A stretch of 64,000 nucleotides of DNA from NCBI GenBank assembly GCA_010093605.1, contig MU004181.1:372001-436000 (forward strand), written 5' to 3'. A model generated the notes under the pieces. It was not told where the DNA came from, made no database searches, and saw only the letters and a program-made list of their open reading frames with translations. This document shows, one piece after another, positions 14,588-63,089 of this stretch (positions are counted from its first letter, which is position 1; the number at the start of each line of letters is the position of its first letter). The stretch comes from Lophium mytilinum. Lineage: Eukaryota. The position numbers and the translations under genes were made by a program.

Positions 14588-14871
14588 TCCAATGCAATGA
14601 TGGGCACGCTAAGAGAATGTGCTTACACCGAGAGAAGCATTTTGAATGTAACGAGCAAGCGATGAAAAGCCGTTGGTCTTGAGGTCCATTGTTCGGATGG
14701 AACAATGCACTGTCAGGAGATAAAAACAAACCTGCGAAGACAAATGATCGATACTGAGGTTAGACAAGCAAGTTTCGAATTTCTTAGACTTTCAGAACTT
14801 CCAACTTCCAACTATCTCTATTTCCACATTTCCGTGATTCTCTAGACGTTATAGTACTAGATCATCATAAC

Positions 14872-14942
14872 CTTAGGCACATAAGTATTGCTGTGCTCAG
14901 GCTCTATTCTTGCCCACTCGATACCACTGTCAGGAGTAACCT
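14872..14942 (+). repeat. Solo partial copy of the array-2 repeat unit
   Basis: CACTCGATACCACTGTCAGGAGTAACC vs array-2 unit 8 CGCACGATACCACTGTCAGGAGTAGCC; upstream AGGCACATAAGTAT vs unit 6 AGGTGTATAAGTAT. Confidence 0.75.
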
Positions 14943-15463
14943 ACTTTGCAGGTAGGTGAGCGGTCAGAAGCCCTCCCTGATGCATTGCATCTTTGACTGT
15001 ATAAGACTGAGAAAGATTCTATCTCCCGCAGGAGAAGCCTGCACGTGACCGGATAGCGTCTGATAGTCACGTGATCGTCAACTGTCAGATAGGTATTATC
15101 CATCACTCTGGGGTTCTATAGTATTGAGTTTCATATTGTATTCTGAGTTCGAAGCAGTTGTATGAGTACTTCGAGTAGAGACTCCATAAAGCAATATGCC
15201 GATAGTTGATCAAGTTGCTTTGGTTCATGGCAGGCGGGGTTCCGTGGTTGACTTTCGTTGCCTACCATGGTTCATCGCTCGCGAGTTTTCCGACCGCACA
15301 AAGATCCTTCGGCTGGCAAATCCTTTCTCTTCATCCTTCAATAACTCTCAAACGCATTCTGCAAGCACCCACACCACATTTGCGCCTTCGTAACCAACGT
15401 CGCAGAACTTTACCATTCGAGCCTTCTTCCACTGTGCAAAAGGTCGCAGTAATTCGCCTCGTG

Positions 15464-23126: not shown

Positions 23127-23564
23127 GGATACGCACCGGAATACGGCTTTCCGCGCAACCTTGGAGGTAGCCTTCCCTTTCATTATTGTATATGAGGATG
23201 AGATGAAAAGACAAGGCACTCTTTGACAGAAGGCGCTCTCTGGGAAGGGCAAGCTCGGCGGTTTCCCCTAACGGGAAGAAAATGCTAAATGAACTTGATT
23301 TGATAGAAGATAGTAGAGAAGCATTCTCCTTCGAACAATTACCCCTTGGTGAGACACTTGCATGAAGAAACTGCAGACTCTACGTATTGAAGATGAAGCT
23401 ATCATTTGGCTGACCGAAAACGCGCTAGCTAGGGCACTCCTTACAGTGTTGTCCATTGAGCAAGATTAACGCCCAAGCAGTAAGATATCGGCGTGGCCGA
23501 ATCCAAGGTCGAAGACTGGACATTCCTTTGGATTGTACTTTGGAGGCTATCGAGAAATCCTAGA

Positions 23565-23612
23565 TCTGTATGCTACATTTGGGTTGTTGGTAACACCGTC
23601 TGAGGTGGCCCC
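23565..23612 (+). repeat. Outlying copy of the array-1 repeat core
   Basis: CTGTATGCTACATTTGGGTTGTTGGTAACACCGTCTGAGGTGGCCC resembles array-1 CTCTATGCTTCAGCCTTGGAGTGTTACTAGCATTGTCTGAGGTGGCCC. 23594-23611 is the exact reverse complement of 47624-47641. Confidence 0.8.
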
Positions 23613-23830
23613 GTGGAAGCCTAAGTCTGAACAATGACATCACATCAGAAATTCCAATTCGCGCTGTAGTGTAGCGATCTAGCGACAGAGTACTGGATTG
23701 CGAGCATGGACGCACTGGCCTCCAGGCTCGGCCTTGAACGGCCCGCGTCCTTCATCTTGCTTCGCCGCCACTTCAAATTTGACAGCCTCCAAAACACCCA
23801 CAACAACGACTCAAAATTCAATCCAACAAG

Positions 23831-24404: not shown

Positions 24405-24408
24405 CTAG

Positions 24409-25220
24409 CGCCGTACTCAATCCAAGCGCTCTCATTTCGTCCTCTCTATGCTTCAGCCTTGGAGTGTTACTAGCATTGTCTGAGGTGGCCCAGTGAATTT
24501 ACAATCTGCTCACATTGATACCGCTAATATAGACTCGATTTTAACTATCAATGGTTTGTTGAGATCGCGCCCTACTGAAGTGAGACCGTTTTATATCGTT
24601 CTCTCTACGCTCTTGTCCTGGGGGGACTCTAGCACTGTTTGAGGTGGCCCAATGAGTTTCCAATTCGCTGATCTTTACATTGTTGATACGTGCTTGATTT
24701 TAACTATCAATGATTTGCTTTCATCAAAACGTGCTAATTCCCGCCCTACCCAAATCAAGCGTTCTCAAATCGTTCTCCCCATGCTCTTGTCCTAGAGTAG
24801 TTCTAGCACTGTATGCGGTGGCCTAACAAGTTTCGAGTTTGCTAATTCGAAACTGTTGAAATGTATTTGGTTTTGGATATCAAAGATTTGCTTTCGTAAA
24901 GTATGCGAGTACCCACCCTAGTCAAATGAAGTGCTCTCGTATCGTCGTCCCCATGCTCTTGTCTCGGACTGACTCTAGCACTGTTTGAGGTGGCCCAATG
25001 ACTCTACACTTCGCTGATACTGATACCAACGAAGTACACCTGATTTTAGGTATCAATGACTTACTTTCATAAGCGTATGCTAGAAATCGAGCACTCTCAT
25101 ATCGTCTTCCCCATGCCCTTATCCTGGAGTGACTCTATCACTGTTGGAGGTGGCCCAACGAGGTTACGATTGCCTAAGACTGACGCTAACGAAGTGCACT
25201 CGATTCTCACGTCCATGACA
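24409..25220 (+). repeat. Tandem array 1: five diverged 159-174 bp non-coding units, core TAGCACTGTTTGAGGTGGCCC
   Basis: GAGGTGGCCC-type cores start at 24482, 24641, 24815, 24987 and 25147 (spacing 159, 174, 172, 160). Other shared blocks: ATCGTYYTCCCCATGCTCTTGTC and GATTTTAACTATCAATGA. Confidence 0.92.
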
Positions 25221-26514: not shown

Positions 26515-27880
26515 AATAGTACTAGAATACACCCTGTGCTTAGTGTTCCGATTGCTTGCTTGATATGCTGTTTTGATATAATATGCTATTACATATGCCG
26601 AGCACTCTGATATCTCGCTGCGCGGGTTTGCCCTTTGACTACTCGTTGCCACCGTCAAGAGTGGCCCTGCAACGGACTACTAAGGAGAGTGATACTAGTG
26701 TGCGCCTATGATCACTATTTGACCAATTTTCTTGTAAGGCCTTTTTTTATATACTATGCTGGGTCACATTCCCAAGTATACTAATTTCTTGCTGTATAGG
26801 TTCCGCCTTTAGACACTCGTTGCCACCGTTAGGAGTACCCCCAGCGGCGGAGCACAGCGGGCAGTGATACCATTATACCCTTGTATTCAATTTTCTATTC
26901 AATTGCTTGACATACCGTTTTTTGGGGTCAATTCTAGGACATATGCCTGGCACACCGATATCTCACTGCATAGGTTCTACCTTTGATTACTCGTTGTCAC
27001 CGTTAGGAGTAGCCCCTGCGGCGGAGCACAACGGAGAGTGATGCCAGTGTTTTTGAGATCACAGTTCGATCTGTTTTCTCGACATGCCTTTTCAGTATAC
27101 TATTTTGGGTCGTATATCTAGGTATACTGAGATCCCACCGCATCGATTCTGGCTTTGATCTCTTGTTGCCGCCGTCAGGAGTAGCCCCTGGAACAGACCG
27201 CAAACAAGGAATGATACTAGAACACACCAGTGGTTGCAGGTGCATTTGTCTACCTAACATGCCCTTTTGATTACTATTTAAGGTTAAACGTCCAGGTATA
27301 CGGATATCGTCCAGGGTGGGCTCCGCTTTTGATTACTCGTTGCCGCCGTCGGGAGTAGCCCCTGGGACAAACGGAAGACGAGGAAAAATACTAGAATACA
27401 CTATTAGTTGCAGTTGTATTTACTTTCCTGACACGGATATTGAATGATTATGCTAGGTTATTTGTCCAGGTGTATAAGTATCTCACAGCACGAGCTCGGC
27501 CTTTGATTATTTGTTACCACCGTCAGGAGTGGCCCCTAAAATACTGCAGAGAAAATGAGTACTGGATTGCACAGGTGGTGAGAATCGGATTGGTCTCTTT
27601 GACTTGCTATCTTGATATAAAATGCAAGTCTTTAGTCTAGGTACACCTATACCTTACTGCACGGGTTCGACTTTTGATCACTCGATACCACCGTCAGGAG
27701 TAGCCCCCAAAACACCGCGAACGAGGAGAAATACTAGATTGTATCAAGCTTCACAATTGCATTCGCCTTTTTAACTTGCGATTTTCATATGCAGTACATG
27801 TCCTCACTCAAGGTATACTTATATTTTACCATACGGATTCGATATTTGATCGCACGATACCACTGTCAGGAGTAGCCCCT
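26515..27880 (+). repeat. Tandem array 2: eight diverged ~173 bp non-coding units, core TTTGATTACTCGTTGCCACCGTCAGGAGTAGCCCC
   Basis: RCYGTY anchor at 26651, 26825, 26999, 27171, 27345, 27519, 27690 and 27862 (spacing 174, 174, 172, 174, 174, 171, 172). The core is much better conserved than the rest of the unit; no continuous ORF. Confidence 0.95.
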
Positions 27881-28377
27881 ACCACATCGCCTCCTCGTTC
27901 CAACCTTCGAAGCCCCACCAGCCGCCACAACCGCGCAAACAGGAGATGAATGTGCAATCTGCTTCTTGCCAACTGTTCTTTACAGACCAGTTACAATCTT
28001 GAGTTGCAGTCACATATTTCATCGAGACTGCATCAACCTATGGCTGAATACTGCAACCACTTGTCCTATGTGCCGGCAAGACGTCCGCAGTATCCCTCCG
28101 CGAAGAACACGTCCGCGAACTGTCCACACTGCTCCTTCACCATCAGCCGTACCTACATAGGCCAACGGGATTCCACCATCAGCTGTAGCTATACAGGCCA
28201 ACGTGCGTCTATCAGCACGCGTCTTGACCCCTCCTCACCTGCGAGGCTACTCGGATACGCCTACGCCCTCGTCGGGTCCCCGGCAAGTCTCCCCTATTCC
28301 AGCGGCCAACAAGATACAACCATTGCGAAACTTAACCCCTCTTCGCCTGCGAGGCTACAGAGTATGGCAGTGGTGAC
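27876..28377 (+). pseudogene. Headless RING-H2 (C3H2C3) E3-ligase fragment inserted between array-2 cores 8 and 9
   Basis: GDECAICFLPTVLYRPVTILSCSHIFHRDCINLWLNTATTCPMCRQDV (about 27942-28086). The frame opens right after TAG 27873-27875 of the repeat core, with no in-frame ATG before the domain. In-frame TAG at 28158-28160. Confidence 0.82.
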
Positions 28378-28384
28378 AATCTCA

Positions 28385-28503
28385 ACTATTTGCTTGATAC
28401 GACGTTTTTGATAGCAATGCTAGGTCATAAGTCTGGGCATATCGATATCTCATTGCACAGGTTGAACGTTTAATCACTCATTACCACCGTCAGGAGTGGA
28501 CCC
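28385..28503 (+). repeat. Ninth unit of array 2, displaced 624 bp by the RING-H2 insert
   Basis: ...GGGCATATCGATATCTCATTGCACAGGTT...TTTAATCACTCATTACCACCGTCAGGAGTGGACCC; anchor at 28486. Confidence 0.9.
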
Positions 28504-29292
28504 AGTATCAGATGTGCAGCCAGTCAAAAGGATGTATTAAGTATCGTATAAACCACGGAGGTCGCAGCACCACAACCTCGGGGGAGAACAAGGCAGCCAT
28601 GCGTGCATTCATCCTCATCTTGAAGTCCATGCCAAAGCCTCGGTCTTTCTCCTCAGACATATTTCGTTCCTCCAATCGCTTCTTCCTTCACCTCTTCCTA
28701 GCTGATGCTCGCGTCGATCTCTTCGTCCAACTGTCCGGATGCGGTCACTGGTCCCGTCGAAAATTGCCTCGACGCATCTCAGAAGACGCCAAACTGCGGT
28801 GCCGGAATCGCGCGACATGGCGGGTTCGTTCAGGAGGGGTCTCGTCAACCCGAGGTCGCTTTCCCACCCTCGTCGTCCTACGCCTTCATTTCACGTATCC
28901 CCGGGGATATTGAAGAGCCATTCGGACACAATAGACGGAACAGCGAAGGGGCTGAATGCGGCGTGCACCACGGAATCGGCATGGGAGACCTGAGGTTGGG
29001 CCGGGACTTTGGGCTCGGGGGGATGGTAGGCGGAGGCACCATCGGATATGATTGGTATGAGACCCTACTCTGGGGATGGATCAGCGCATATTGAGCGGCC
29101 GTGATGGCGTTTTGAGCGTCGTAGAGAGCGTCTAGAGCGAATTGAACGGTGACTGGGGGCGCGGGTGCCTGTAGTCCAGGCAGGAAGTCATTGGCGGGCA
29201 TCTGCAGTCCAGACAGGAAGTCAGACAGCAAGGCAAGTCTTCTTGTGTCGTTCCTAGTGCTCCTTCTGACAATCCTCCGAGCAGGACTTGAC

Positions 29293-29570
29293 GCATGACT
29301 TCGAGGGGAAGAAGTCGAGGAAACGGCCTGGATGCGGCGAGCGGTACCCTCGAAGATTGGCTCGAAGCCCCCGGAAGACGTCAAACGGTGATACCGAAAT
29401 CACGCGAGCTGGCGGGCTCGCTCAATAAGGATCGCGGAAGCATGACTTCGAGGGAGAAGAAGTCGAGGAAACGGTCTTGATGCGACGACCGTCCACTCGA
29501 GAATTGGCTCGAAGCCCCCGGAAGACGTCAAACGCGGTGCCGGAATCACGCGACTCGGCGGGCTCAGGAG
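29293..29570. repeat. ~147-bp direct duplication within a decayed minus-strand ORF region
   Basis: GCATGACTTCGAGGG...GAAGTCGAGGAAACGG...TTGGCTCGAAGCCCCCGGAAGACGTCAAACG starts at 29293 and 29440; weaker copies near 28735-28830 and 39957-39990. Confidence 0.85.
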
Positions 29571-35090: not shown

Positions 35091-37849
35091 GCTGGTGAAC
35101 TGACTGAGCGGGTTGCCTAGAAAGATCGACTCTTTCACGCTCTCGTCGATGACGGAGGACTTGTATAATCGAGTGGTCAACTTCGCGAGTTTGATCTCCG
35201 GAGATTGTGCGTACCGCTGAACAGCCGTCCTTGGGAGCATGAACGGGTTTGACCCCGCAGGGTTCGCGCTTTATTGGCATCTTGTAGTAGAAGAAGTGTG
35301 TTGAAGCTTCGTGTAGAGGGTTGGTGTCGAGTGGTGGACGATGAGGGGATTGCGCGGTTCGCAGCAATGGTGACGTACGTGCTCGGAGGTCGGCTGTCGT
35401 GGGCTCAAAATGACCGCCGAAGTGCAGCCGTACAGGGACGCGGCTCGGAGATGAGTTTTGGAGTGCGGAGGGCTGGAATTGAGGGCATGAAGACTGTTCT
35501 CTGATGTCGATGCCTTGTGCGTCTAACAGCGCAAGTACCGGCGGGCTTTGAGAGCGGCGGTCGGAGAGGCGAAGTCGACTCGAAGGAGAAGGATTTGCAT
35601 AAAGCAGATCGCAGCGTTCTCCTCCACGGGCGTGTGAAACACCACCTCGGGGCCACAGGTGTCTTGTAGCTGCCGAAGATGATGTCCTTTGTAGGAGTAG
35701 AGGGAGCGAGATAGGTCTAGCAATATCGAGATGGGTGCGGAACTTCTCCACGCTGGAGTCGGCGACGGTCTGACAAATGAATGGAGTAGTAGGAGGGCAC
35801 TTTGTCGTTGAAACAACCTTTGGAGTATTATAGGGCAGTGTGCATGCGCAAGCAATAGAGACATGAATGGCCGTGTGCATGGCCGTTAAAGGATGGTGAT
35901 CAGGCACCAGTCTTTTCAAGTCCAAAGACCAACGAGTTTCTTCTTCAATCACCCGGGCAAGCCGAGCCAATCAATGAAAAAATGTTGCGGTTCCAAAGAA
36001 AGTTAAAGGAGACTGAAGGCCGTAGCCAACAACCCACTGTGAGTCGCTCAAAATTTTTCAATCAATGAGACCCCTGCACTGGAGAAAGAAGAAGAGCTTC
36101 CCAAGAGAGAGCTCAAGCTGATATAGTCTCGCGAGGTTAGCTGCTTAGTCAGCCATAAAGCTGACTCATCAACGCTAGTCGTTTCAACAAGGTCCAGATC
36201 AACGTTGTGGTCAGGCCCGCGTCGGTCCCTGGCGTGCCTGGCAAGGCCGGCTGCGTGATTATCTTTGGCATCGAATGCCTAATGCGTCGCGCGAAGACAG
36301 GCCGACACAGGTCGCGTTGAGGGCCGGGATTACTAATCGACCAGCATTGGTGAAGCGGCATTGCATGGGATGAGGTTTGAAGTAATTCGAGATTCACCGA
36401 GTTGACGCGAGAGTAGAGTGATAGTATCAACTGAGTAATCTAGTTGTCGCTCCAATCTATGAGCACGAACAATGCGCTCGGCACCGGATACCAAACATCA
36501 TCATATACCTTGCTCTCTGGGCAATTCCAATTCACAACCATGACGAGCTCCTCCTCCCATCCCCAACAGAGCTAGTCACCAACCTTCCAACTCTATCTCT
36601 CGCGGGCGAGCAAGGAAACTCGAGTGAAGGGAGCCCAGCAAGCGGGCGTGACGCGATTCAATAAAACAAAGTCAGCAGGAGATGGTGGTAGGAAGGCGTC
36701 TGGTACAATAGGCTATATCTTTGCTTAGCGACGAGAAGTGGTCTTAGGCCCGCCCTTAGTCCTCGCCGTCTCCCCATCGTGCTGAACTTGTTTCGGAATG
36801 CGTCCATCGGCGCGGGACAGAGAGCGCTGGGGCAGTCGCGTCGATCACCGTGAGGTGCGACTCTGGGTGAATATCTGGAAATGGGAACGTTTGCATGGAG
36901 ATTTGTTGCGCCTTAGGGATCCGAGACTCGGTCATGTACATCAAGAATCATGTTCTGCCGTGAGTCAAGCTCCCGTTCGCGCAACAGGAGCTGATGTCGA
37001 AGATCTGGCCTGTGAGGAGCCTTCTTAAAGCGTTCCGTTCGACATTCCAGCTTCAGGTCTTGGGCAGTGATCTTGCGAGCTCGCATTCTGGCACTTTTAG
37101 ATCTCATTACCGACTCATTTGCGAAGACGGCAACATCTCCCAGGAAGAAGTTCAAGTTGTGGGAGTACCTGTCCAGTAGTGACGAGACTCTCTCCTCTTT
37201 GACGGAGACATCGCGCTTCTATGTTGTAGATTCATTGCAGACATACACCAGAGCTCCCGAAATGCTTCATGAAGGCCAGGAGGCGATCTTAACCTATGCG
37301 CTGGATTCGATGCCCGCATGTAGCGCAAGATATCTCGTTCTTGAGAAGCTACCGGGCCAAGATGAGCCATAAGGAGGTCAGATTTTGTTTTGAGAAAGAG
37401 CGCATGTTGAAAATGAGAGTCATGTGACGAGGCGCCGTGAAAGACGACATGACCATCGCATGGTAATACTAAGCTTGCAAAGAAGGCGTATCTGAGGCTT
37501 GTAGTCCCGGTGAGATTGGAAGTGGATTCACTCTTCGATCAAATGGAAAACGACTCTGGTTTGGTCTCTGGATGAGACCTTGCGCTGTTCCTGTATAGGA
37601 GTGGTTCGTGTTCACTTGGAAAGCCGGCGGAGTGGTTCATGAGGGCTTAGAGGCGGCTCGGGTCCACACTGCCTTCGCCGCCTTTACCTAGGGTGTTGCT
37701 CTATTTCCAAGGGCAAGAGTTTTAGCACGGCAGATGGTTTGTCCGGGTTGTTGCAGCGCGTCGAGAAGGCTGGCTGGTGGGAATGGCGAGTCGTTTCCGT
37801 CCATGCCGACCGCACCAACGAGCTGGCGAAGGAAGGCACAGCTCATCAA

Positions 37850-41499: not shown

Positions 41500-44400
41500 A
41501 AAGACGGTCGAATTTATTGCCTTTATATAGCCTAGCTAGACAACACGTCTGTGCGGGGTACCGCCTTTGCTGGGGAGCTGTGCTGCCTAGGTAACGCCCA
41601 CGGGATCTCTAAAGTGAAGGGAGAGTGGAAATCTTGATGCCATTCAGATTAAGCTACCCCTCGAGGGATGATTCTTGACTCGTTGTAGCACGGGGACAAT
41701 CTGAAAAGCAATTTGAGGCAGCAATCAAATTGAAAAGTCATCGTAGTTTCAAGCCTGCTGGCCCATACTCATGCAAAATCCTACAAATATCCAACCACTA
41801 TTATCGAGCTTCCGGTAAAGGGGAAGTCATCTAATTTCTAATCTTTGACTATTTTGAAACTTAGTCTCATGTATCTCTCAATTGTGAAGTTTCTTCTGGA
41901 TGCGCACTTCTCCTCCTTGAAATCCTCACAACCTCCCCATCCTGTCGGATCGAAGAGTAGCCTGGGGTTATCCGTGCACCACGAAGATCGTGACTCTAGA
42001 AAAACCCATTGAATCGCTTACATTCAAACTCAGGCCAACTACTTGGGTGACTGAAGTCTATTTCCACATACACACTATCCCAATCGGAGCTACATTGCTA
42101 GCCGTTGTGCTTCTAGACGTCTTGAGGGCATTCTTTCACATCTTGCTTGCCATCGGGCTTCCCCTACTTGATTCCGACAGGATGAAATGCTTGACCAAAA
42201 GGAGATACGTCCTCTGGCGTACCTTGAGATGCACTACCACCCCTGCTTTCAGGATCTCGTTAATAGTAACAAACCTAGGAGTTAATACGCCGACTGGGAC
42301 ATGGTGCAGGATGCCAGAGGACAGTACGTGTCGCAATCCAGCTCTGCAAAGTAGCGAAGTGTGGCATCTAGCTTGACGTACTGCTGACGTCCTCGGTTAT
42401 ATAGGCTCTATTGTGGAACTTTCCCGTGGGGTGCACGATGATTATCGCATTGCAATTAATGTTCTGCTCTGGTGTATCGATATTGCCTTTGGCCGGTTCG
42501 ATGAAGTTGTGGTTAGTCGCTGGCTTTAAGTTATGACCAACACCAGACATTTTCTCACTCGTCTGGCTTGATCCCAGGACACAGAGATACCCGCAACGAG
42601 AAGATGGACAAGGATCCGTAGCTTTTACGTTCGCGGAATACGCAAAATAGCATCTAAAGAGGCAAATCCGGAAAGCTTCGATGGCGAGATCACCAACGAT
42701 GTTCGCCCTATCCAGATGAGAGTGGTATCCGTTAGAAATTGTAAAAGCTTCTCTGGAGAAACATTCGTTCTTAATGGTACAGAGGGAGACCGAGCGGGAC
42801 GAAGCTGCAGTTGTCGGGGCTTGTTTTTCGATGGCGGAGGATGCTGCCACGAGATCACGGAAGAAGGAGCTATATACCGTGTACGTCATGTAGTGAATGG
42901 AGGAGTTGCGGTTGGAGAAGGAAGAGGTGCCTGGAGTAAGCTGAGCCTATATACAAGGCATCCCTGCCGTACCCGCCACCACTGCTTCCTAACACGGAGT
43001 ATCTTCCACCAACGTTCCATGGAGAATCTGCTACCCGTCCTTTGACTCCATCCAGTGAGGATGATGCCCGCCACATCGATCTCAGAGGATCTCCCCGGAT
43101 TGTAGTGCGTCCGGAATGCGGCATTCATCTTCGTCAATTGAAGGGAAAGATCCATGGGAGCGACTCCACGGTATTCGCGCAGTTCTTTCATATTCCCAAC
43201 CCACGTAGTCACCTTCTGTTTCGCCAATTCCATACCAGCAACGACAGAGTCACTTCTCTTTAGCTCATTATCCAGCATTTCTCTGTGTTCAAGCCCATAT
43301 CGATTGCTTGGATTATCTCATTCGCGATTTTTGCCTCGCAATTTCCTCGATCCCACTTAGTGTAGTTTTGACACTACCTCCGTCCTTTGACGTAGCCTTT
43401 GCCCGGCCCCTGCCTCACGCAATGACACCCGCAAAGCCTCTTGAGATTTCTTACCGCTACGGCAGTCGATGGTGTCTTGTAGCTTGGCTGGTCAAGGTTT
43501 GAGATGTTTCTTCGGAGTTTGAAGCGCTCTTCCAGTATCAAAATCGGCTAAGCATCAGCTGCAATCCCCGCGAGCGACGGTGGCTGAGGAAGCGGCTAGT
43601 TCGAGTGGGCCGTTCATTGGAGAGGATTTGAGGCGTACGACATGGGAGGAGACGCGGGGAGGTTCCGAAGTGTAGGATTGTCGTCGTCATCTCCAGATGT
43701 GAATGCACTGATGATGAAGTTAGCTGTTGACTGATCGTCTACCTGCTGGTTGGGGCTCTTTGTCCAGGAAACTTCGACGACCCGGCAAAGATGGAGCCCA
43801 TCTCGAGAGAGGTGAGGCGGGGTAGTATGGAGGCGGCGAAGAGGAGGAATATAGCAGTGATAATTTCTGGGACACCAGCAGCACGCACATAGTGCCCGAG
43901 CTCTAAATTACAATCTGTGGAGAGGATACTACGGGCGAATGTGGCGATGGAAACGCGTATCAGCTGCATGGACCTGATATAAGGACGCGGGTCACATCAC
44001 GACATTCACGCAAAACGCAGTCACAGCATGAAAAGATGTATGAGCTTGACAACCCGCCTGTTACTAACTTACTGAGAGGTGGATCAGTCCTGCGACTGGT
44101 GCAATTGAAAGTGGTGTGTGTAATATCTTTTGGAACTTACTCCTATCCGCTAGGTTCAGGTCGATGTCCAAGAAATCTCGATCTATCGTGTCTAGCATCA
44201 TGAGCATCAGAATCGACTTAAAATGCTCCGCCTTACTTCTCTCCTTCCCATCCACCTTATATGGGATAGTCAGATATGGTTGCAGCGCTAAACCCAGAAC
44301 AACGACAAATAGATCACCTGACCTGGTTCAGAGACCGGGACCACAGGTGTAGAACCCGTGCCATCAAGCCATTAGCTCAAGATTTTCTTTGGTTATGGTT

Positions 44401-45280
44401 AGCTATAAAAGACGGTCTAGTAAATCCAGAACCGTTTTTTAGCAGGCAGAGCAAGAGCAACAGGCCCGATCCCACATGGCGGCATCGACTGGAGGATGCT
44501 GTTGTCGTCATGGAAGATCAATACTTGGTCTCGACAACTAAAATGGCGGCATCAACTAGTGGAAGACATAGTCGTCACGGGGGATTGAAAGCTGGTTGCG
44601 AAGACTGCCATGGCGGCATCAACTAGGAGTAGCTGTTGTCGCTATGGGATATTGGATTTCTGCAATTCGGTCTGGAAGAGTTCCATGGCTAGTTTCGTAG
44701 TGCAAAACATGGATCGAGGAGGCTCATGGGCGAAGAGGCTCATGGGAGAGGAGTGCTAGATGGGTGGATGATGATGAGAAGCAGTGTTGAATGTCGATGT
44801 TGGGCAGCTGCTTCAGTAAGCTTTGACGTGAGTGTCATTGATGGTGGTTTCAATGATCAATGGCTATTATGGCTGGTCATCATCATCGACGGTAAATATC
44901 TTTGCTCAGTTCGCCGGGTGCGCTGTTCACTATCATAGTCTCTCTCTCGGCCTTCCACAGTTTTCTCAATTCCTAGGCATCGTGAGAGGACATCAATGCT
45001 ATCACCTTCAAGTCTCAAGATCTCATAAGGTCCATCATGCAACGCCCCTCGATATCAACGAGATCGTATTAACCTCGAAGCTGATACCCTCATAGCCTAC
45101 GGCGTAGATTCAAACATTCCCTCTCCTCCGAGCCCTCGACCTCGAAACGAGGAGACCGAATAAGGCCGTCGTAGTAGCCTACGATATCAACGCCGCCGAG
45201 CGTACTGGCCATGAGGCCCATGCAAATGGGTACGAGATCGGCCTTGCTGAGTGGTGGATTTTGAGCAAGGAGGCTTCGGA

Positions 45281-45496
45281 GAGTTCTTGTTAGCAGCCAT
45301 CGAACCTCCATCTGCGGAAGTCGTCGACAGCTCGATCATGAGCCCGCAAGACCTGGACGCAGTCACATGATACGAAAAACTCATCCCGTTTGGAATATGA
45401 CCCCCGGCTGTGCCGTTTAATCCCTCACTCGGCAAGATGATTCTGATGGGCATCCTATTCCGCGGCTTAGACACCATGCTCATCCTCAGCGCGTCT
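45281..45496 (+). pseudogene. Fragment of a DEAH-box RNA helicase (winged-helix/HA2 region; DHX30/DHX36-like)
   Basis: One frame: EFLLAAIEPPSAEVVDSSIMSPQDLDAVT*YEKLIPFGI*PPAVPFNPSLGKMILMGILFRGLDTMLILSA, matching the pattern FL..A.EPP...L..L.AL...E.LTPLG..LA.LP..P.LGKMIL.G..F.CLDP.L; two stops. Confidence 0.8.
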
Positions 45497-45589
45497 TCAC
45501 GGGCAGGTCTCTTTTGCTCAACCCAATCCACATTGACACCGGATCTAGATCATCCCTCTCTAGCTGTTTCACTTGGCTTTGACCTCTGG

Positions 45590-45812
45590 ATTCTCGTTCT
45601 CCCTCGCTAGGGTAGGTTTGACGCCTGTGGTAACAATCGAGAGATGTTGCGCAAGAAGGCCGCTAGACGAGACCGCTGGTGGGAACTCTACGAGCTTTAC
45701 TAGCGATCGGGATCTTTCGATCTATGAATTCTCGTTCCCACTCGCTGGTGAAGGCTTAACGCCCGTGATAAAAGCCAAAGGATGCTGCGCAAGACGGCCA
45801 CTAGACGGGAGA
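45590..45812. repeat. ~140-bp-period imperfect direct repeat
   Basis: TTCTCGTTC..CTCGCT...ACGCCYGTG...GATGYTGCGCAAGAMGGCCRCTAGACG at about 45591 and 45729. Confidence 0.7.
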
Positions 45813-47549
45813 GACGGAGAAGGGTCTGCGAGCATCAGTGAGTATCGTTAGATCACGAGATCTAACCGCCCTTACGCTTCCCGCCTCTTCCCTCCACAAT
45901 CCGCTCACCGCGCCGCGAGCATCGAAGCATAAAGACTCAACAAAACCCTCCGTTGAGGTACCCCCACACCACCGGGGCCAATCAATGCCACCCCCTGGTG
46001 CAGATGTCGAAGTACAAAGACTCAACAAACCATTCCCCCGGGCGCGGGGTGGCCTGATTAGGGGTGAGTGGGGTCATTTGGGTGAGGGCACCTCCCTTTC
46101 CTGGGGCGATTTGCCCCGCGGGTGGCCCCATCGCCTACCTTGCTGCAGCAGTGGGCCGCTCAGCGCTGTTTTTGTTGAGTCTTTATAGTTCGACGCGCGC
46201 GGTGTGCTGCAGCATGGCGTGGGGAGGGGGCGATGGGGTTACCCGCGCCAATGCTCCAGCTTCTCAGCGTAGATGGTGGGGATGGGACGCTCCTAAAGGC
46301 GCAGACTGACATGTTGTCGGGGTTATCGCTGTAGTATCGAGGGGCTGCCTTTGGGTCGACTTTCGTGGCGCCATCACGAGATGAGAGTGAATCAGATTGC
46401 CTCCGGCGCTGCTGCGTAAAAGTTGCTACCAGCAGCCCAGCATGGGCTGTGCTAGTCTGCCATCCGCGCACCCACTTTTGATTGCCCCAAAAAGTCGCCG
46501 GAGAAGAGAAAACGTCCATGAGATGAGAAGTTTCGAAGACAGAAATAAGGGCCATTGCCCCAGGGACTGAAGTCGAGATCGAGGCCATATCAGCGACGCG
46601 GACCGAACCTCTTTGCTTCCTTGCGGCATTCACTAACAAGAAGTCCAAGACAACAAGGAATCCTCGCATCCCCTAGGCGAAGGTCCGCAGCTAAGGCATC
46701 CAGTTCCGTTCAACATGCCCGTTCCCGCTTTGATAAAGCAAACGACGTTTGCTAATCTTCTTTCAGTATGCGTAAAAGACACCAAACAAAAGAAGTCTTC
46801 ACTGGAGAAGCCGGCCAGCCGAAACCAAGCCGGTTGTGTGTCCCTTTTTTTGGGTTCTTCCGAGCTGAATTCAAGCCTAAAGGAAACCAGTTGTAGGACA
46901 TGAAGGAAGAATGTTCGCTCCTGCGCGGGAAGCAAAGCTCCATCGTCCCATAGCTAAAGGCGAGACATGTGTGAGGTGTGCCAACCGCGCGAGGGAATAC
47001 AGATGAGCATCAACTACCGACAACGGATTTCTTTCAAAGAAGCGGGATCGCGGAGGAGCATGAGACATGAAGGCCCCAATTCGGTATTGGTGTCGATGCG
47101 CTGCGACATCCTCCACATTTCTAAAATCCGGATAGGGACATTTACTTAGCATGGTAACTGTGGTCCTTCTCCCAGATGCCATTTTCGTTTGGAGACTCCA
47201 GTTGCATCTAGGTTCTCCGATCGCGAGGGCTTAGGCGGTGGCTATCGATCCTATTGCGAGCGTCGGTTGCTTTGGCTGACGTCCCTCATACCTCGTAGCT
47301 GCCCAGACCTCCTATGCCTCAACGCTTGATCCTAGATCCGTTCGCGGGCTCTGGGATTCGATCGACGATGTCCAATCCGGCATGCTCACGGATCCTCTCC
47401 GGCCGTCCATGGTGTCAACTTCTCTCGAAGATTTAGCAGATGAGAGGCTAAGATTTCCCCCACCGCGCATTCCATGAACCCAGAAGTCATTTTCAACCCT
47501 ATCCGATCCCCGAATAAAGATTGACCCAGGGGCTTGCGCACAAATGACC

Positions 47550-48105
47550 GGCACCGTCTAAGGTCTCCTGGTACGTTGTCCGCGGCGGAAAAACGTCCAT
47601 TTCAAGAATTCTGTTACCTCCCTGGGCCACCTCAGACGGTGCTGAGCTGCTGTCCAAAGAGTCTGAGACCGAGCATCCAGCCTACCGCTCGAGGTCCTCC
47701 AGAACAGTGTCGGGAACGGCGAAACCACAATTCCAATCATCCGAAGAGCTCCATGGGCCGGCTCAGACGGTGCCGAAATACCGTCTAGATAATTTTGAGG
47801 CTGAGTATGTCAATCTCCATGCTCTCCTCAGTGAAGCTGCCTGAGGTACCTTAGCACAGTCTCCTGAACGGTCAAACCCCAATCTCAAGAATCCTGCTAG
47901 CGTCCTAGGCCACCCCAGTCGGTGCTGAAGCATCCTCCAAATGGGCACGAGACCGAGGATATCCTCCTCCGTAAAGCTGCCTGAGGTGCCCTGGTCTAGG
48001 ATCTTGAACAGCCAAACCCCAATCTCAACATTCATGTCAGCTTCCTGGGCCACCCCAAACGGCGGTGGCCTGCCGTCCAAATAAGTCTAAGACCGAGCAT
48101 ATTGA
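47550..48105 (-). repeat. Tandem array 3: four units of the same core family in inverted orientation, each with a paired inverted half-site
   Basis: Cores GGGCCACCTCAGACGGTGC (47624), GGGCCGGCTCAGACGGTGC (47755), AGGCCACCCCAGTCGGTGC (47907), GGGCCACCCCAAACGGCGG (48047). Opposite-facing YRAGGT sites at 47559, 47690, 47842 and 47982. Confidence 0.85.
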
Positions 48106-49946
48106 GCCTCATGTCCTTCCTGTTGATCTTGGCCCCAGCCAACTCGGCGATGCGGCCATTGACTTCCAAAAGAGCCCGACACCGTGTGCCAGCGCGTTGT
48201 AGTCCTCCAGTCGAGAAGCAACGCCGTTGCGTGAGCTTCTAACAGAAACTTCCCCGGCAGTCTCAACCGTACGCGCGCTTCCAGCCGGTCTGCGTCAGGT
48301 ACGCTGGCTCTTGGCTGACGCCTCGGCCTGCGCCATCTTGACGATATGTGTCTTCGTGGTGGGTCTTATGCCTGTTTGTGGCGCGTTCTGCGGAGCTTGC
48401 CGCTCATGCAGTTGTGAAGAGCTGAGGGATCGCACAGGCAGATGGGAGTGGGAGGTGGAAAGCGGAAGGGACACTGCGAGGCCGCCAGTGGGAATACCAC
48501 GCGTAGAGTGAACACCCCTACGCGATATGGGTTGACGTTGCGTGGCCTGAGAGCTACTGGGCTACTCCGGTGATCAAGAGCACGCTGGATTCGGCTTGGG
48601 GTATACGGAGGTGGATATTGGTGATGGTATGAGCCCCTAAGATGCTCGTTAGCGGTAGGACTCGTGAAGACGAACGGTGCTGCCTTTAACGCTATGGAGC
48701 TGTGTAGAACGGTAGCGCGAGGGCAGAAGCATAGCAACACCATGGAGGTCAAGCACGCGAAGGCGCCAAGCGGTTGCTGCGCAGTTGACCAGAGTATCAT
48801 TGTTCCCATTATCCAAAAACGCCGAAAGTCCTACAGAACCCAGCCGGCCTAGCTCTCTATTCCTACACTCCTTGCCGTCTTGGGCTACTCGTCGTGTGCG
48901 GAGATCCTTCGACAAGCCGTCTGTCTGGAAGAAGTCGATCAGCAAAAAAGGATATTTGCAGTAGAACAGCAGGGGAAACGTACCTTCTTGTGGATGATTC
49001 TACTACTCAGGGATCGATATACATTGTGGGCAGTCCGTACTTCGCGAAGTATTTGTCTTCTGTGAGCGCGAAGGCGTCGTAGAGCTGGCGCAGGATGATC
49101 GGTGCGGTCACCGCGATGAGCACGCCGAGGAGGATGAGGCTTGCAGCGTCAAGAGCTGCCATTGCGATGACTGTGGATTCGATTGTGGTGCGGTGAGGTT
49201 GTGTGAGGCTGTCCAAAGGCAGATGTGAGCGGATTGTGAGGCGACGCGCAGGTGAAGAGGAGGTAAAGCGGTAGTGAAGCGGAGGTTAGGCTGAGTGCCT
49301 ATCATCAACATGCCGAAGGATATGGTGGCTAGGAACGCGTGCAGCCAGTTGCATGATCAGCACAACAACACCAAGGCGGGGTCTATCATCAAGCAGAACA
49401 CCTAGGCCCATCATCATCAAGTGAAACACCAAGGCCTCCATCTCAACCAAAAAAGGTAAAGAGAAAGAGACGCCAAAGGCAGAGAAGCTTCTTCTTCGAC
49501 GACCCAGACAAGCTGAGCAGATCAATGAAAAAGAGGTTGAACAAAATGTTCGCGTCGGCCCGAGATGGTGCAATACGAGCGACGCCGTGTTCCCGAAGAA
49601 ACGATTTCCAAAAAATTCCCCCCAGCCGCCACAATCACCTACGCCTACTACGCCTGAATGCCGGCGCACCGTGAGGTGCGTGCTCCACCGGATTAGCTTA
49701 CATACTGTAATGCATAGTAGGACGCAAAGGCTAAGGAAGGTGGTTAGTGATGATCAGAAGAAGCTGTGAAAGGATTGACTTACAAGTTTGAGCTGAAGGT
49801 TCGATGAAGTTCGAAGTTGACGGAGGGCTGGCAGGTTGATATAGGTTTCCAAAGACGCTAGCCAGAAGCATGACTCATCAGCGCTAGACCGTTTAACAGA
49901 GCAGAGTAGGTGGGTCGGGGGGCAGGCAGTGTAGGCCGGCCGGTCG

Positions 49947-50012
49947 AGGAGGCCAGTTAGCATGTGACGGGCGCGGGCGAGGAGGCCAGTTGGCATGTGA
50001 CGGGCACAGGCA
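49947..50012. repeat. 33-bp tandem duplication
   Basis: GAGGAGGCCAGTTRGCATGTGACGGGC twice. Confidence 0.8.
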
Positions 50013-53000
50013 GGACGCGGAGGGTCGGGCACCTAGAAGAGGGCCACGCCGGATCAACCCCGGATCACCAACGTAGTGTGGCACTCGCGTATCAGAGGGC
50101 AGGCCGCCTGAGAGTAGGTAACCTCTGAGGGTGGACGGACCTTGACGGGGCAGTGAGGCCCACTGGCGTTCGAAACGTTGAGTGCTCTGCGTACACGTGA
50201 AAGGCCCTTTTATGTTATCCCAACCACACGTATTGAGCTTCAAATGCTCCTCTTCTCGATCATTAGTAGCATATCTAGTACATTGCGCGAGGAAGCTGGA
50301 AAGATGAAAGGTGCTTGCGGCTTTCACGAATTAGGCATTGAGCAGGGCTGGAACGTGTCGAAGTGTGACTAAGCTCCTGATTCTAGATTCATCTCCCAAT
50401 CTATTTGGGTGGCATCCAGTGAGTTTCTCTTGCACTTGTTCTACCTTCCATTTCCTGGTGAGACTTCTGGAGGCAACGATGGGTGAATGTGGTTCGATTT
50501 CCGAAAGCTTGCAAGAGATACAAGGCACTACAGGCCAAGGACCCTGTGCTCTGGCGCACTAGATACGCAACTTTACAAGAGGAATGGAGGTCGATTGATG
50601 CTGATTTTTCCCTTGGCAAGGAATGGGAGATAGGTTGAATTTGATATTCACCGGAGCATCGAGGATGCACGCGTTCACACCATGGCAAAGCGCTGGTCAT
50701 TCCGCATAGCGCCAACGTCGAGGAAGAGTAATGACCCAAGGATACCAACCCCTAATATGGTTGAGGTCGAAACGGCATCCTACTCTTAATGTAGTCTTCA
50801 AGCTCTTTGTTGCTGCAGTATCGTTCTCAAATCACTACGTCCTCTCGGGGAAGCAAATCGTGCAGCTCTTCTTCCCGCCGGCAACGTTGACGCAGACACA
50901 TCCAGGTCTTCCTCGCAGAAAATGATGGCTCGATATCTTTGCTTTATACAAAGCTAGCTATATTATCCCTACTAAAAGCACTATAGACGCACGTCACGCA
51001 GGACAACTTTCTTTCATGCTTTTTCGCCTTGACCGCCTCCACCTCGAAAACCTCTTATCCGAGTTCACCTCAAAGGTGTCCCATCATTATGAAGCTTCCG
51101 CGAGGTGCATCGCAGCCACAGCCTATTCGCAGCAGCTCGCACACGGATGCAGTAAATGCCGCCTCCTCCTTTGCGCCAGGTGTGCCAGCATCCACAACGG
51201 CCAGGGCTCTCCAGACGAGCGACATACTGACGTTGACGTTTTCCTCGATTGGGATTGCAATCGCTTCGGTAGTGCAAACGTGCAACGCTCGCATTGGTCG
51301 AAATGGTGTTCCTATTGCAGTATAGCACGCCTCGCCAGCCAACTCGCGACCACGGCGCTGCAGGGAACACGATCCATGGCGCCGTCGTACAGCGGCGCGA
51401 AAGCTTGTTTCGACGTCGAGATCTGATCGCTACGCGACTTGGAAATGCTCTTAGAGTACATGAGTGCCGCTGCTGGACGAGATTAGTTGATGGCAATGCG
51501 GGCTCCGAGTCTGAGGTACGCGGTCGCATTATTGGTGTTGTCCTTTTGCGACGGGCCCACTTTAAATCATCCGGTGGCTACCAACCATGCTGCAAATGAG
51601 TGCTGGAAGTTTTTGGGCGTCTTGCGTTGTCCGCTCTGAAGATTGATGGCATTCAGTCAAGACCCCAGAATGGCGCATAGGTCCAGGCTTGCAGAATGAT
51701 GAGGTAGCGCCGTTGGTTGGGGATACGGTGGCGCTCAGTGTCGGGCTCTGGTCTAATGCAGCTAGCTGGTGAGTTGGCAGAGACAGTGCTCCTGTCGACA
51801 TTTGATCGGGCGACCTCATTAGTAGGAAATGTATTGGGGTCTGTGGATGTAGTCCTAATACCCAACAAAACTCAGAACGAGTATCATCTCGGAGGTCCTG
51901 CACGGGACAATCTAGAGAAGAGGAGCTAGCGGCAGCATACTTCTCTAACTTTGCAAGACTCGCACTTTTTGGACCGCCTTAGGGTTTCCCGCGGCAAAGA
52001 AGATCATAGAAAAGAGCTCAATGTTTCTTAGCCAGGAAAGTTTTCTGCCGTTCTCACGCTCCTTAATGCCGCCTTCGGCACTGGCTGCTCCGCAGTAGTG
52101 AACGCTATCCACTCGAAAGTCCCGGAGAGGTCCAACTGGATATCCTCAGAGACCCAGCTCCTGTCGCAGGGTGATGGCTTGGGACCAAGGATTATCCGGA
52201 GTATGACATTTCCGTCAAGGCTAAAGGAAGCAGCGGATGGAGTCGAGAAACTAGGAGACGGTACGGAGGAGCTGAGACTGAAGTATGAACGCCGTCGGAG
52301 GTTCGCCGATGGGTTCGAGATTCTACACTGGCTTGTTCTGTTTCATTTGAACCTTGGTCATACTGAAGTTATATCGAACTGACCAGACAGCGATGAGTTC
52401 CAAGCTTGAGTCGGGGATAGAGTTTTCTCAGGCTGGGGCAGTGTACAGCGCTGTTGGCAACCAAATTGTCGCGGTCTTTCACGGCATCATTCAATGATGG
52501 TTACCTAGGCGGAGTCGGCATATCTCACCCAAGCGAAGCAAAGTAGAGCCTTGGAGAAAACGGACGGCAAAGACACTGGCGTATCTATAAAGAGGTGTCA
52601 TGAAAGAGGACTTATGCTTGATTTTAACTACCCAGATCTCATGGCGATAGTGTCCATCTCCTGCCGCACTTAACGAACCGAGCCTCTGTCGCTGGCTTTT
52701 GTGCGCTCGTCCTTCTGGCCTGCATGCCGGCGGGGTTTCCCTTTGAGAAGCTGCTCCGGCTCCTGCTCTTGCTTCCTATTCACCCAGGATATCTCGGGCG
52801 ATTGCTGACCTGTACCGTCGGCTTTTCAACCAGTTTGTTGTCGACGACGAGGTTGAGGAGTGGAACGTTCGTCGAGCCGGCAGGATCCCTGTGGAGGAGG
52901 TCTGGAAGGGAGCCCGAAAGGATCCCTGGATAGCATCGTCAGCAACCGTCCACTTTGAGATTGGACTTCACATACTATCAGCGTTTTCCTCATTTGCGAG

Positions 53001-59266: not shown

Positions 59267-61400
59267 TACGCACGTGAGGTGAATACTTTGATGCATTAGG
59301 TTAGATAGATTCCGAGGTCGAAAATTCAATCTTTACGAAACCGCTACCTTCCAACGTGTTTATGATTGCAAGTATTCCGCATCATCCAAGTTCAGGACTC
59401 GTCCGAAGGTAGCGAAGTAACACGCGCGTTATGAACAAATACAGGGATCTAGGACAAAACATTTGCTAGTAACAGTAGCCGACATGAATGCCATAGCTGT
59501 GTCAGGTTCTTCAATTCCCCAGTAAGACCTCAATTTTCTATTACTTCCTCCCATCTCGAATCGGAGTCTTTGCCATGAGGAGAATTCGCATTCATCACGG
59601 ACTAGCCATGCTCTTCAATTCAGGTTCGAGTATGCAACTTCACCCTGCCCGTTCGATGCTTGGATGTCGCTCATTGATTGCTGGAAAGAATGCTTTCAAT
59701 CCCATACTGCCAGGATGCAGCATTCCTAAAGAACCAGCGGTGTGTGTTTCCCCCACTGCATCAAAGCTCGCGGCGGCGAGCCGCTCAACGTAAAAATCTT
59801 AGACTTCCACAACGAGGTCTCCCGAACTCTCTTTCATTTGGTCCTCGACTGTACCCTCCACAGGCCCGAGCTAGATATCCTCCTCTCGACACACAGGCCC
59901 CTGGTTCACGATTATCAGTGCTCCTTCAAGCCATCTCTTCCTCACCTGTCTTTCACATCTAGTCGATGCCTCGGAGAACTCCTACCATCCGATGCTAGTA
60001 TGTCGGTGTCACCTGAGTTCACGGCAACCTCCCGGGTGAGCCATCTTGCTCCGGCCAGTTTCCCGCAGTAACCCTCAGCCGGGTACCTGCGGGAGAGTGC
60101 CGATTCGCTGAGACTCGTAGTGTCCGGCTAGCGACGATGATATGTGGGTTCGAAGACTTGCGGAGGCCGATAGGCGGGGTGTGGTGAAGGTATTTGACAG
60201 GCCGTCTACTGGAACTGTGTTAGAAGCGGTTTGACTAGCGGCCTTGGCGGACACGACCTCTTGAAGGCGCCTAATCGAGGTGGATGCATGCTCGATTTCA
60301 TACAGAGAGCGTTGGGATGACGATACGACAGGAGAAAGTCCAGCAGGTCTGGCCACGGGCCCATGAAGCGCCTGCGACTGAGGATCACCACGGAGTATGG
60401 TATTAATTACCGTAGCGGGCGACTGGTTGTTACATTGGTATGATTGGCAGGTACTAGGAGCTATGGGATCAGAGCATTGAGCGACGCCTGGAGGAGGAGT
60501 TGGGATTGAAATTCGGGAAGGCCTAATGGGCGCCTCGGAAGACCATCGTTAAAATGAGCCGCAAGGCCTGTTACTCTTAGCCAATGGAGCGGTCCGTCGA
60601 ATTTGAAGCACTTACTGAGCAGAGCCTCTTGGGTGGAGCGTCGCCGGCCGGGGTATACAAGCTAAATGTACTCAATGAAGTGAAGGTCTTGCAGCTCGTT
60701 TTCAAACCACCGGAGTGGCCTCATACTTTGTTGACAGCTTAGGGGAATCTTCCTCAGTTCACGTAGTACTAGGTCTGACGTTCCCTAGATACTCAGTTGC
60801 TGTACCGGAGTACTGCTGCTTAGTGAAGGTGATGGACCGAGCTTCGCCTATGATCTCCTCCGACTCCCGAACTCCGACAACCGCGATCAGCGTGGAAACT
60901 GGCCGAACGTTCCAATACTGCTGTCGGCCTCGCAGCGCCTGGATCCAGGCACCATGCCGGCCCCGACCCGCCTAATCTGTTCTGTTAAACGGCCTAGCGC
61001 TGATGAGTCATGCTCTTGGCTAGCGTCTTTCGAAAACTATATCAGCCTGCCAGCCCTCCAACTTTCCTTCCTCATCCACCCCTCCCCTCTTCCTTGATCA
61101 GTTCGCTAACACTGACAGATCTTGTCTTCCTCCTCCTCTGCCTCGGCAGCCCTCCTCCTCCCGCTGGAACCCTAGTGAGCCCCCTCCCCTCATGAACCCA
61201 TTGCTAACTTTCACAGGACTTGCAACCTTGGTCCTTCTTTTCTTTTCTTTGGACACACTTACCTTACCTGTTTCTTTGAGCAGGTTTGGTGGAATTTTTG
61301 GAAACCCCCTCAAAGACCAGCTCCCTTCTGGGACTGGCAAGTCACTTGCTGAGTGCCTACTCTCTTCGGGGACTGGCCGATCGCTTGTTGACCACAACAT

Positions 61401-61870
61401 CTTTTTTCATTGACTCACTCAGCTTGTCTGGGGCTTCGAAGAAGAAATCTCACCACACTGGCTTGGTGTTGCATGAACTGAGCGTAAACCTTTCACCTTC
61501 GCCTGTTCAACTTCACCTGTTCGCTTTCACCTGCTTGCTTCCCAGTGACGCTGGCTTGGTGTTGTAATGTTTCTGAGATGCGTCTTGCGCGATCTACCTG
61601 CTTCGCCGCTCGAGTATTACAAACCTCTCACGCCGCCACTCCTCTCTCTCTCATCCATAGTCGTCCACATTGCCACGCTCCCCCGTCCCATCGTTTCTGC
61701 TTTCGTCAGAGAATCTCGCCAGCGTCGTAGACTAATAGCCGGTCAGCTTCGAAGGGGCCAGTTTGCACCATGTCTGGTATCTTTAGAAAACCCGCCTCGG
61801 ATGCGCTATCTCTCCCACTTCTTTTTTCATTGTGTCACTCAGCTTGCCTGGGGACTCGAAGAAGAAATCT
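61401..61870 (-). repeat. Two copies (61401-61450, 61821-61870) of a dispersed ~48-bp element also at 18988-19035(-), 35935-35982(+) and 49486-49533(+)
   Basis: CTTTTTTCATTG..TCACTCAGCTTGYCTGGG...TCGAAGAAGAAATCT; stop-free reading xFFFxxPxKLSxSMKK-like in all five copies. Confidence 0.75.
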
Positions 61871-63089
61871 CTCATCTCGGCATCCTGCGCTCGTCTGGCG
61901 TTGCGGGTGAGAGACGTCGCTGTCGCGATGGTGTTGACGGGCTGGTGAGGCACCCTTTTTGCCTTCCATCGTGATGCTGCCACATTGATGAGGTGAGCGA
62001 CGCACAATGACGCCAATAGGGCTTCCGGATACGAGCCATCCTACGAACGCAGTAGTGGCCACGTCTACAGCTCTGTGCTAGGAGGATGTGAGGATGCTCT
62101 AGCCCAGCGCGTGCGAAGCGGGCGTCCGTCACTGAAAATGTTCACGAGAAGCGCAGGATAGTGCCCCCTGCTTATTGCAGCGTCTGCATGATGGGAGCAA
62201 ATGCATCTCCCTAGTCTCTCGTCAGAGCGTGCGCGTCGAAGTAACTCGCAATATGAAGCCCACGGCGGCTGGCACCGCCAGCTCCAAACCAAGGACGACA
62301 GCAGAGACAGCAGCTCCCATGCGCCGATTCCATGACCGACTCTACGGAACTGTGCCTACTTGCATCTTCGACAGGCTTCTTCTTGCACCCAGCAGACTCG
62401 ACACGTCTCTCCAATGCCGGCGAAGAGATCGCTGGCGCTACCGTCTTCTGCCGCGGTTCGCAAAGTCAAAACCTCTCCCATTGCTCATCAGATCTCTGTT
62501 CCAGGCGAAAATCATCATTCAGAAGGGCGCGCCATTATGCTAGCTGCCAGCAGCAATCCTCAAGCCAGACTCCAGCGCGACGACCCCGCCGGCGACCAGC
62601 TTTACCCTCCGCTCGTTCCGTGCTCCTTCCCGTGCACCACATCCAACCACCGCTCGCCCCTTGGCCTCAGCGCTACGATCCCCCAGCACGCGCAATCGAC
62701 GGTGGTCTAAGTCAAGGGCAGCATCGGAGAGGTCCCTCTCGGCAGCTCCGATGAAGAGAACATCGAGCTCAAGAAGCTCGTCGGCGGAGCGGTACTGTCG
62801 CCCGACTCCTATCTAAGAAACTTTTGTCGCCAATTGCTAACTGTCAACAGGTCGCCAATGAGTTCCTCGGAAAGTAAACCTTCGCCACTTCCTCGACTCT
62901 TCGATCGCTTCATACCGCGCGCGCCCATTGGGCCCGACTCCGCTGCTGCCGCCGACATTTCCAACTCCTACCGTAACACCGCGCGTCCAGGCGTTTGCCC
63001 TCACCTACAACCCAATGGCTTTACTACGCTTGCCTCAGTAGCTTACACGAAGTGAGGTCTACCTAGACCGCCGTCCAATAGCTACAGGC

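Follow-up and report, generated by a model that had tools for sequence, protein, structure and literature searches.

Array 3, the third cluster of a repeat family found in a 64-kb window (the term is used here for the whole stretch of DNA analysed), is best explained as an inverted, lineage-specific, non-coding intergenic array, the most eroded of its family, in which a short core box would be the only constrained part and likely a protein-binding word. Judged from the sequence, this explanation has about an even chance of being correct. If the box is under selection, the family would be a small and tractable example, from a filamentous fungus, of a satellite-like repeat that has one defined functional word; such repeats have been little described in these organisms, and an 18-mer probe would offer a handle on its binder. 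If the box is not selected, the family is ordinary repeat debris.

Array 3 consists of four head-to-tail units, A to D (Table 1), each ordered as a module of ~67 nt, a 58-nt spacer, a relic echo (an opposite-facing, degenerate copy of the core), and a linker of variable length. It is the most decayed array of the family and lies inverted with respect to arrays 1 and 2. The layout proposed in the first-pass annotation holds. The 18-mer CACCGTCTGAGGTGGCCC, located at 23594-23611 on the plus strand, recurs exactly at 47624-47641 on the minus strand, and array 3 is indeed a sister, in inverted orientation, of the arrays at 24-28 kb. A YRAGGT word (TAAGGT at 47559, CGAGGT at 47690, TGAGGT at 47842 and 47982) precedes the core start (47624, 47755, 47907, and 48047, respectively) by 65 bp in all four units, and the distance between successive units varies as described (131, 152, and 140). 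Units of similar length are thus arranged head to tail in this array, as they are in arrays 1 and 2, where the period is 159-174. The four 99-nt stretches running from echo to core align without gaps, which means that length change is confined to the linker that separates a core from the next echo.

Table 1. Positions of array 3, its sister arrays, and the solo modules in the window.
Feature	Position	Strand	Remarks
Array 3, units A-D, head to tail	47551..48106	- (core orientation)	repeat search, TRF period 140, nhmmer module matches
Module matches in array 3 (nhmmer)	47620-47681, 47751-47815, 47903-47965, 48043-48106		
Core box, unit A	47624..47641	-	18/18 identical to 23594-23611
Core box, unit B	47755..47772	-	2 mismatches
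Core box, unit C	47907..47924	-	3 mismatches
Core box, unit D	48047..48064	-	3 mismatches
Echo A	47551..47564	+	inverted core copy, 13/14; closes the sole hairpin beating shuffles (47548-47646)
Echo B	47682..47695	+	9/14 vs consensus core
Echo C	47834..47847	+	9/14 vs consensus core
Echo D	47974..47987	+	9/14 vs consensus core; identical to echo C
Local palindrome of unit B, AGACGGT-N8-ACCGTCT	47765..47786	no strand	pairing of the core with the TTTGGAC-type box of the same module
Sister array 1, five modules	24429..25160	+	period 159-174
Sister array 2, eight modules	26605..27882	+	period 171-174; ninth module at 28440-28506
Solo pair, back to back	23428..23615		23428-23493 (-), new; 23548-23615 (+), holds the exact 18-mer
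Solo module	14868..14946	+	between two DUF7730 ORFs

The family comprises 21 module copies in the window, three of them solo and the others distributed among array 1 (five), array 2 (nine), and array 3 (four). The module, which was defined by aligning 20 core-centred stretches with MAFFT, is common to all three arrays, and is composed of an ATATC box, ~20 variable bases, a TTTGA or TTTGG box, and the core, which ends in GCCC. A profile of this 67-nt module yielded 21 matches at E <= 2.7e-7; 20 of them had been used to build the profile, and the remaining one was new (minus strand, 23430-23491). With up to three mismatches allowed, the CACCGTCTGAGGTGGCCC form is found 10 times in the window versus 0.06 expected from shuffles, and the form typical of array 2, CACCGTCAGGAGTAGCCC, is also found 10 times versus 0.02 expected. 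The modules occupy five successive gaps between ORFs at 23.1-28.5 kb and one gap at 14.9 kb, and the cores of the solo pair at 23.4-23.6 kb face outward. Two partial cores, CACTGTCAGGAG and ACTGTCAGATA (14709-14720 and 15083-15093), flank the solo module at 14.9 kb at 216 and 158 bp.

Contigs from the source sample and from a further sequencing run (X3) were compared with positions 20001-32000 at 80% likeness. Only a block of ~35-42 nt, from the TTTGA box to the core, is matched by the genome's other contigs and by those of run X3, which then diverge. The dispersed matches (34-42 nt, with 2-7 differences) fall at 23424-23465 and at 27669-27705, each of these two places being matched by at least 3-4 other contigs and, in addition, by run X3. 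The presence of the block on other contigs indicates that the family occurs in few copies at scattered places in the genome, the arrays being local amplifications. The loose-end consensus of the dispersed blocks retains the ATATC box and shows a short palindrome behind the core, which is also seen in the solo copy at 14.9 kb. In the same comparison, run X3 covered no gene of the stretch, only short family blocks; its contigs differ greatly in depth (9.5 to 4753), from which it is guessed to be RNA. Metagenome scans with two degenerate block patterns returned no match and then a single one, within a bacterial-type ORF, that was taken as chance, and none of four family motif strings was found to occur in the literature searched.

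Conservation is unevenly distributed along the unit. Units of the same array are only 0.60-0.66 identical, and the best-conserved window of 18 columns coincides with the core in each of the three arrays, with identities of 0.87, 0.86, and 0.80 in arrays 1, 2, and 3, compared with array means of 0.60, 0.58, and 0.52. Column permutation gave p = 0.0006, 0/5000, and 0.013, respectively, the value for array 2 being based on seven of its nine units, as the last two do not have the full downstream part. Only the core has resisted drift, and it has done so independently in three arrays. This unevenness also means that array 3 is not merely a recent duplication, for which uniform identity would be expected. 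The units of one array share array-specific sequence, indicating that they arose in place, and under an in-place origin neutral drift is expected to be even along the unit. The retention of the same box in three independent arrays argues for a constraint on the box, or for some process focused on it. Core conservation could instead be due to biased gene conversion, to a local mutational cold spot, or to selection on a mobile element.

According to this explanation, the family is placed among small fast-evolving genes of the ascomycete, and an ancestral unit would have gained an internal inverted duplication of the core, and would then have been amplified head to tail via unequal exchange or slippage, after which the copies would have drifted to ~60% identity. 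The core would be the working part, as the putative recognition site of a sequence-specific DNA-binding protein, and the arrays would constitute clusters of candidate sites 130-175 bp apart. Judging from its conservation alone, the box is probably a protein-binding site; no match to a known motif was obtained. A bolder proposal, which we regard as quite unlikely, is that the 18-bp box is bound by a lineage-specific protein and that the arrays, with one box every 130-175 bp (about one per nucleosome repeat) in successive gaps that separate small, fast-evolving genes of the 2EXR/DUF7730 and RING types, serve as boundary elements or landing pads, the indel-free echo-core distance and a small helix within the module (described below) being parts of the same device. 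If so, they would be a euchromatic counterpart, in a fungus, of boxed satellite monomers.

Several known systems share features with this family. Alpha-satellite combines monomers of near-nucleosome length with one short conserved CENP-B box; here, in contrast, the repeats are not centromeric, the arrays hold only 4-9 units, and the binder is putative. In minisatellite families, arrays of different unit length have a common core, and the core described here may resemble the classical minisatellite core. Foldback elements, for their part, carry inverted copies of their terminal sequence. The closest kind, as far as the consulted parts of the sources go, are the short euchromatic satellite-like arrays with scattered monomers of insects and bivalves, some of which are carried by MITEs or Helentrons. 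In Tribolium castaneum, families of ~170-bp tandem repeats form short euchromatic arrays and dispersed monomers (PMC4675708, in the part consulted), and in Crassostrea gigas, satellite-like arrays are carried by Helentrons (PMC7492417, likewise in part). Both resemble the present family, within the sections considered, in their non-coding monomers of 130-175 bp, in the occurrence of short arrays and single copies among genes, and in their high divergence. Unlike what those sections describe, the repeats studied here are fungal, apparently present at very low copy number, and linked to no identified carrier transposon, and they hold one 18-bp box that is better kept. DTC84 from Donax trunculus is a MITE with internal tandem repeats (PMC3879986, in the part consulted). 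The family shares with MITEs of this kind and with foldback elements, to the extent that this part covers them, inverted copies of what may be a terminal sequence, the tandem sub-repeats, and the coexistence of solo and arrayed forms, but a target-site duplication, defined ends, and an autonomous partner were not found for it.

The first-pass annotation had also pointed out a degenerate core, facing the opposite way and at a constant offset, in every unit of array 3, and this is borne out. At the fixed aligned position, the echo 14-mers agree with the consensus core at 13 positions in unit A and at 9 in each of units B, C, and D, while the probability of at least 9 agreements is 0.0022 among 64,948 background 14-mers. 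The echo is genuine, an ancient inverted duplicate of the core. When each copy was searched with its own core over the downstream 127 nt, unit A alone (13/14) exceeded the shuffled-core null; the other 20 copies scored 7-10, for which the null gives P(>=9) = 0.19 and P(>=10) = 0.03. One unit of array 1 reached 10/14, with P = 0.03 before correction for 21 tests. After allowing for these 21 tests, none of the 17 copies outside array 3 shows a significant paired site, and the weak echo suggested for array 2 is not above chance in the own-core search; the CTRAC motif of that array falls in the columns of the array-3 echo in the MAFFT alignment. Of the two observations named beforehand as speaking against a paired functional unit, a fixed offset due only to recent duplication is not borne out, as identity is not uniform along the unit; the other is, since no significant paired site is present in the 17 family copies beyond array 3.

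The further suggestion that the functional unit is an imperfect palindrome of ~90 bp survives in unit A only. Although the spacing between both sites is fixed, as would be expected of a two-site element, the echo is conserved no better than its background, with a mean pairwise identity between units of 64%, near the 52-60% of the whole unit; the core reaches 80-87%. Over the four units, the echo/core helix has 75% of its cells paired, versus 23-48% when one partner is slid by 1-3 columns. However, dealing the 3' letters among the units still gives 74.1% pairing, and 258 of 500 such shuffles reach the observed value, so that there is no compensatory change; both sides have changed in only one cell, and the covariation sought across the units of array 3 is absent. 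Folding points in the same direction, as only unit A (-37.8/-43 kcal/mol, z = -3.0/-4.0) beats its shuffles. For units A to D, plus-strand RNA gives z values of -3.0, +1.1, 0.0, and -0.1, minus-strand RNA values of -4.0, +1.25, -1.1, and -0.7, and DNA values of -3.0, +2.3, +1.25, and -1.0, which places units B-D between +2.3 and -1.1. Pairing of a core with the echo of the next unit gives z values of -1.0 to -2.6, the best of them being driven by the 7-bp local palindrome of unit B, and the back-to-back pair at 23.4-23.6 kb folds no better than shuffles (z = +0.37). The echo has not been maintained, and the hairpin of unit A is its best-preserved relic. The absence of indels from the echo-core distance, with all of them in the linker, could mean that spacing matters; the chance of such an indel-free pattern is roughly estimated at 0.03-0.09. 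Appealing as they are, the palindrome, hairpin, and inversion readings all depend on a single well-preserved unit.

Two other explanations treat the units as an RNA hairpin locus or as decayed coding repeats. In one of them, the units are transcribed and the echo/core stem is a microRNA-like RNA precursor, with an arm complementary to sister cores. The fold of unit A, the 3' arm of its plus strand (a perfect complement of the core at 23594), and the G-U-rich small helix of the module speak for it. As in the tRNA-linked microRNA-like RNA hairpins of the Neurospora milR-4 type, the hairpin arm matches decayed sister copies nearby, but ARAGORN found no tRNA in the 64-kb window and only one of the four units folds, the RNA z values of units B-D ranging from +1.25 to -1.1. 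Covariation is likewise missing, RNAalifold obtained no consensus structure (0 consensus pairs) from the 21 modules, and Rfam contributed no match: zero families at the gathering score in the whole window, and three noise matches at E <= 10 in 23300-28700 and 47300-48300, all of them off the units. Among sequencing runs, those listed for 42001-52000 were two DNA runs of the source sample and one run, guessed to be RNA, that contained almost none of the words of that stretch. A hairpin or small-RNA locus is improbable. The small helix mentioned above consists of 5 bp (TTGAY/RTCAR) that join the TTTGA box to the first half of the core, and 82% of its cells are paired, a value that 1 of 500 shuffles reaches and that slid controls (15-56%) do not; many of its pairs are G-U. 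Picked by eye, it is a hint of an RNA-level feature outside the preferred explanation. In the other proposal, slightly more improbable still, the units are decayed coding repeats or exon-intron modules similar to introners, with splice sites 73 nt apart on either strand, AG|GT in the echo and CAG| in the core. Such GT..AG segments of 73 nt are present in three of the four units on each strand, the differences in unit length (9, 12, and 21 nt) are each divisible by three (a chance of 1/9), and symmetrical proliferating introns are known in Hypoxylaceae (PMC8469720, in the part consulted). The sister stwintrons of that family lie in coding regions, are spliced, and have TIRs of 45-55 nt and a TTTCTAGAAA palindrome, according to the same portion of PMC8469720. 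The units resemble these stwintrons and introner-like elements, as that portion presents them, in being multi-copy and internally symmetrical over ~90-200 nt, in their GT..AG ends, and in the Sordariomycete-type genome, but differ from them in having no host ORF, poor donors, and no branch site, and the family motifs are absent from the one supplement of PMC8469720 that was consulted. By eye, position 5 of the donors (GTCTCC, GTCCTC, GTACCT, GTGCCC, and GTGGCC) is not G, and a CTRAY branch site was not seen before the acceptors. Removal of the 73-nt segments leaves stops in all frames on both strands, and the resulting "exons" of 58, 79, and 67 nt shift the frame. Coding relics are not apparent either: every unit contains stops in all frames of both strands, substitutions show no 3-base periodicity (p = 0.22-0.81), and a Pfam search with 12 ORFs of array 3 and nine read-through frames (X at stops) gave only chance matches (E = 0.18 and E = 0.087). 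A word-indexed search of 5.8 billion proteins with the 107-aa ORF of the minus strand retrieved no relatives.

The remaining explanations invoke DNA mobility. The family could derive from a transposon without host function, the ~40-nt block serving a small non-autonomous MITE- or foldback-like element as its terminal or binding sequence; the solo copies would then be insertions, the arrays local amplifications, and the echo and core terminal inverted repeats. This is consistent with the presence of the block on other contigs and in run X3, with the back-to-back solo copies at 23428-23493 and 23548-23615, whose cores point outward, with the inverted core copies inside units, and with the short satellite-like arrays of animals that derive from MITEs or Helentrons (PMC3879986 and PMC7492417, in the parts consulted). 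Nevertheless, no target-site duplication was seen by eye at the flanks of the pair at 23.43-23.61 kb (23428/23615) or of the copy at 14.9 kb, and transposase, reverse transcriptase, and recombinase domains are absent from the 128 ORFs of at least 110 aa on which the domain census of the window is based. Moreover, the array-specific sequence shared within arrays indicates an origin in place, and neutral decay would not spare the core over its flanks in three arrays. An origin of this kind, without host function, is considered unlikely; a MITE-like beginning is compatible with the preferred explanation. It had also been suggested that the opposite arrays at 23.6-28.5 kb and 47.6-48.1 kb promote inversion of the ~20 kb between them, as a site-specific recombination switch, a reading consistent with their opposite orientation, the exact 18-nt inverted match, and further inverted matches of 26-32 nt. 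However, this is very improbable, because the inverted matches between arrays are short: the longest span 32, 29, and 26 nt with 81%, 79%, and 85% identity, respectively, only 18 nt being exact, and homologous exchange would need higher identity outside the core. In addition, the flanks of array 3 showed no further similarity by self-BLAST to the regions around arrays 1 and 2, no recombinase domain was found in the 128 ORFs, and the source contigs are collinear over 20-32 kb, with breaks only at repeated words in array 1 and near 29.4 kb.

Two candidate protein readings of array 3 were discarded. With HMMER against 1.84 billion representatives, the 98-aa ORF of the plus strand obtained a sole match (E = 9.9e-5) that was judged spurious, as the matched sequence is a 1302-aa protein of near-identical repeats hit in seven stretches, that is, a repetition artefact. 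A reading of the frame W-A-T-S-D-G as WD40, PD40, or Asp-box was dropped after the read-through search of Pfam.

The window has a eukaryotic, fungal character, with no long bacterial-type ORFs and with numerous DUF7730/2EXR and RING-finger ORFs of the sort that typifies filamentous ascomycetes. RIP indices give no signal in array 3 and borderline values in arrays 1 and 2. The region 44-49 kb, in which array 3 lies, holds no Pfam-recognisable ORF, and small repeat families are found immediately to the left of the array: three 67-bp direct repeats at 44475-44652 and an inverted repeat (40 nt at 83%) at 45906-46209, of which a third copy is present. Near arrays 1 and 2, an ORF at 25219-26457 (+) has a 2EXR-type LPxELRxxIW motif that was missed by Pfam, and direct arrays lie on both sides of it (array 1 before and array 2 after); the distance from module to motif, ~560 bp, is similar to the ~630 bp measured at the DUF7730 gene at 15.4 kb. 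An ORF encoding a RING-H2 finger (C-x2-C ... C-x-H-x2-H-x2-C ... C-x2-C) without a start codon extends over 27876-28160 (+), opening directly after a TAG inside the last core of array 2, and either is a pseudogene or has its upstream exon inside the array. Just after array 2, stretches 28018-28358 and 28612-29560 are matched at 80-95%, with skips of 36-334 nt, by other contigs of the same genome and by run X3; these matches are paralogous copies of that sequence. Elsewhere in the window, a tandem repeat of 21/63/126 bp at 21189-21490 (-) lies inside a 403-aa RING ORF (20939-22147) and encodes an acidic heptad-like repeat of the EELI(R/Q)GQ type. Finally, a 99-nt inverted repeat with 91% identity links 49822-49920 and 60961-61059, 11 kb apart, and is accompanied by shorter related inverted matches at 49482-49532, 61403-61446, 61823-61873, and 35937-35982, which suggest a small duplicated gene family.
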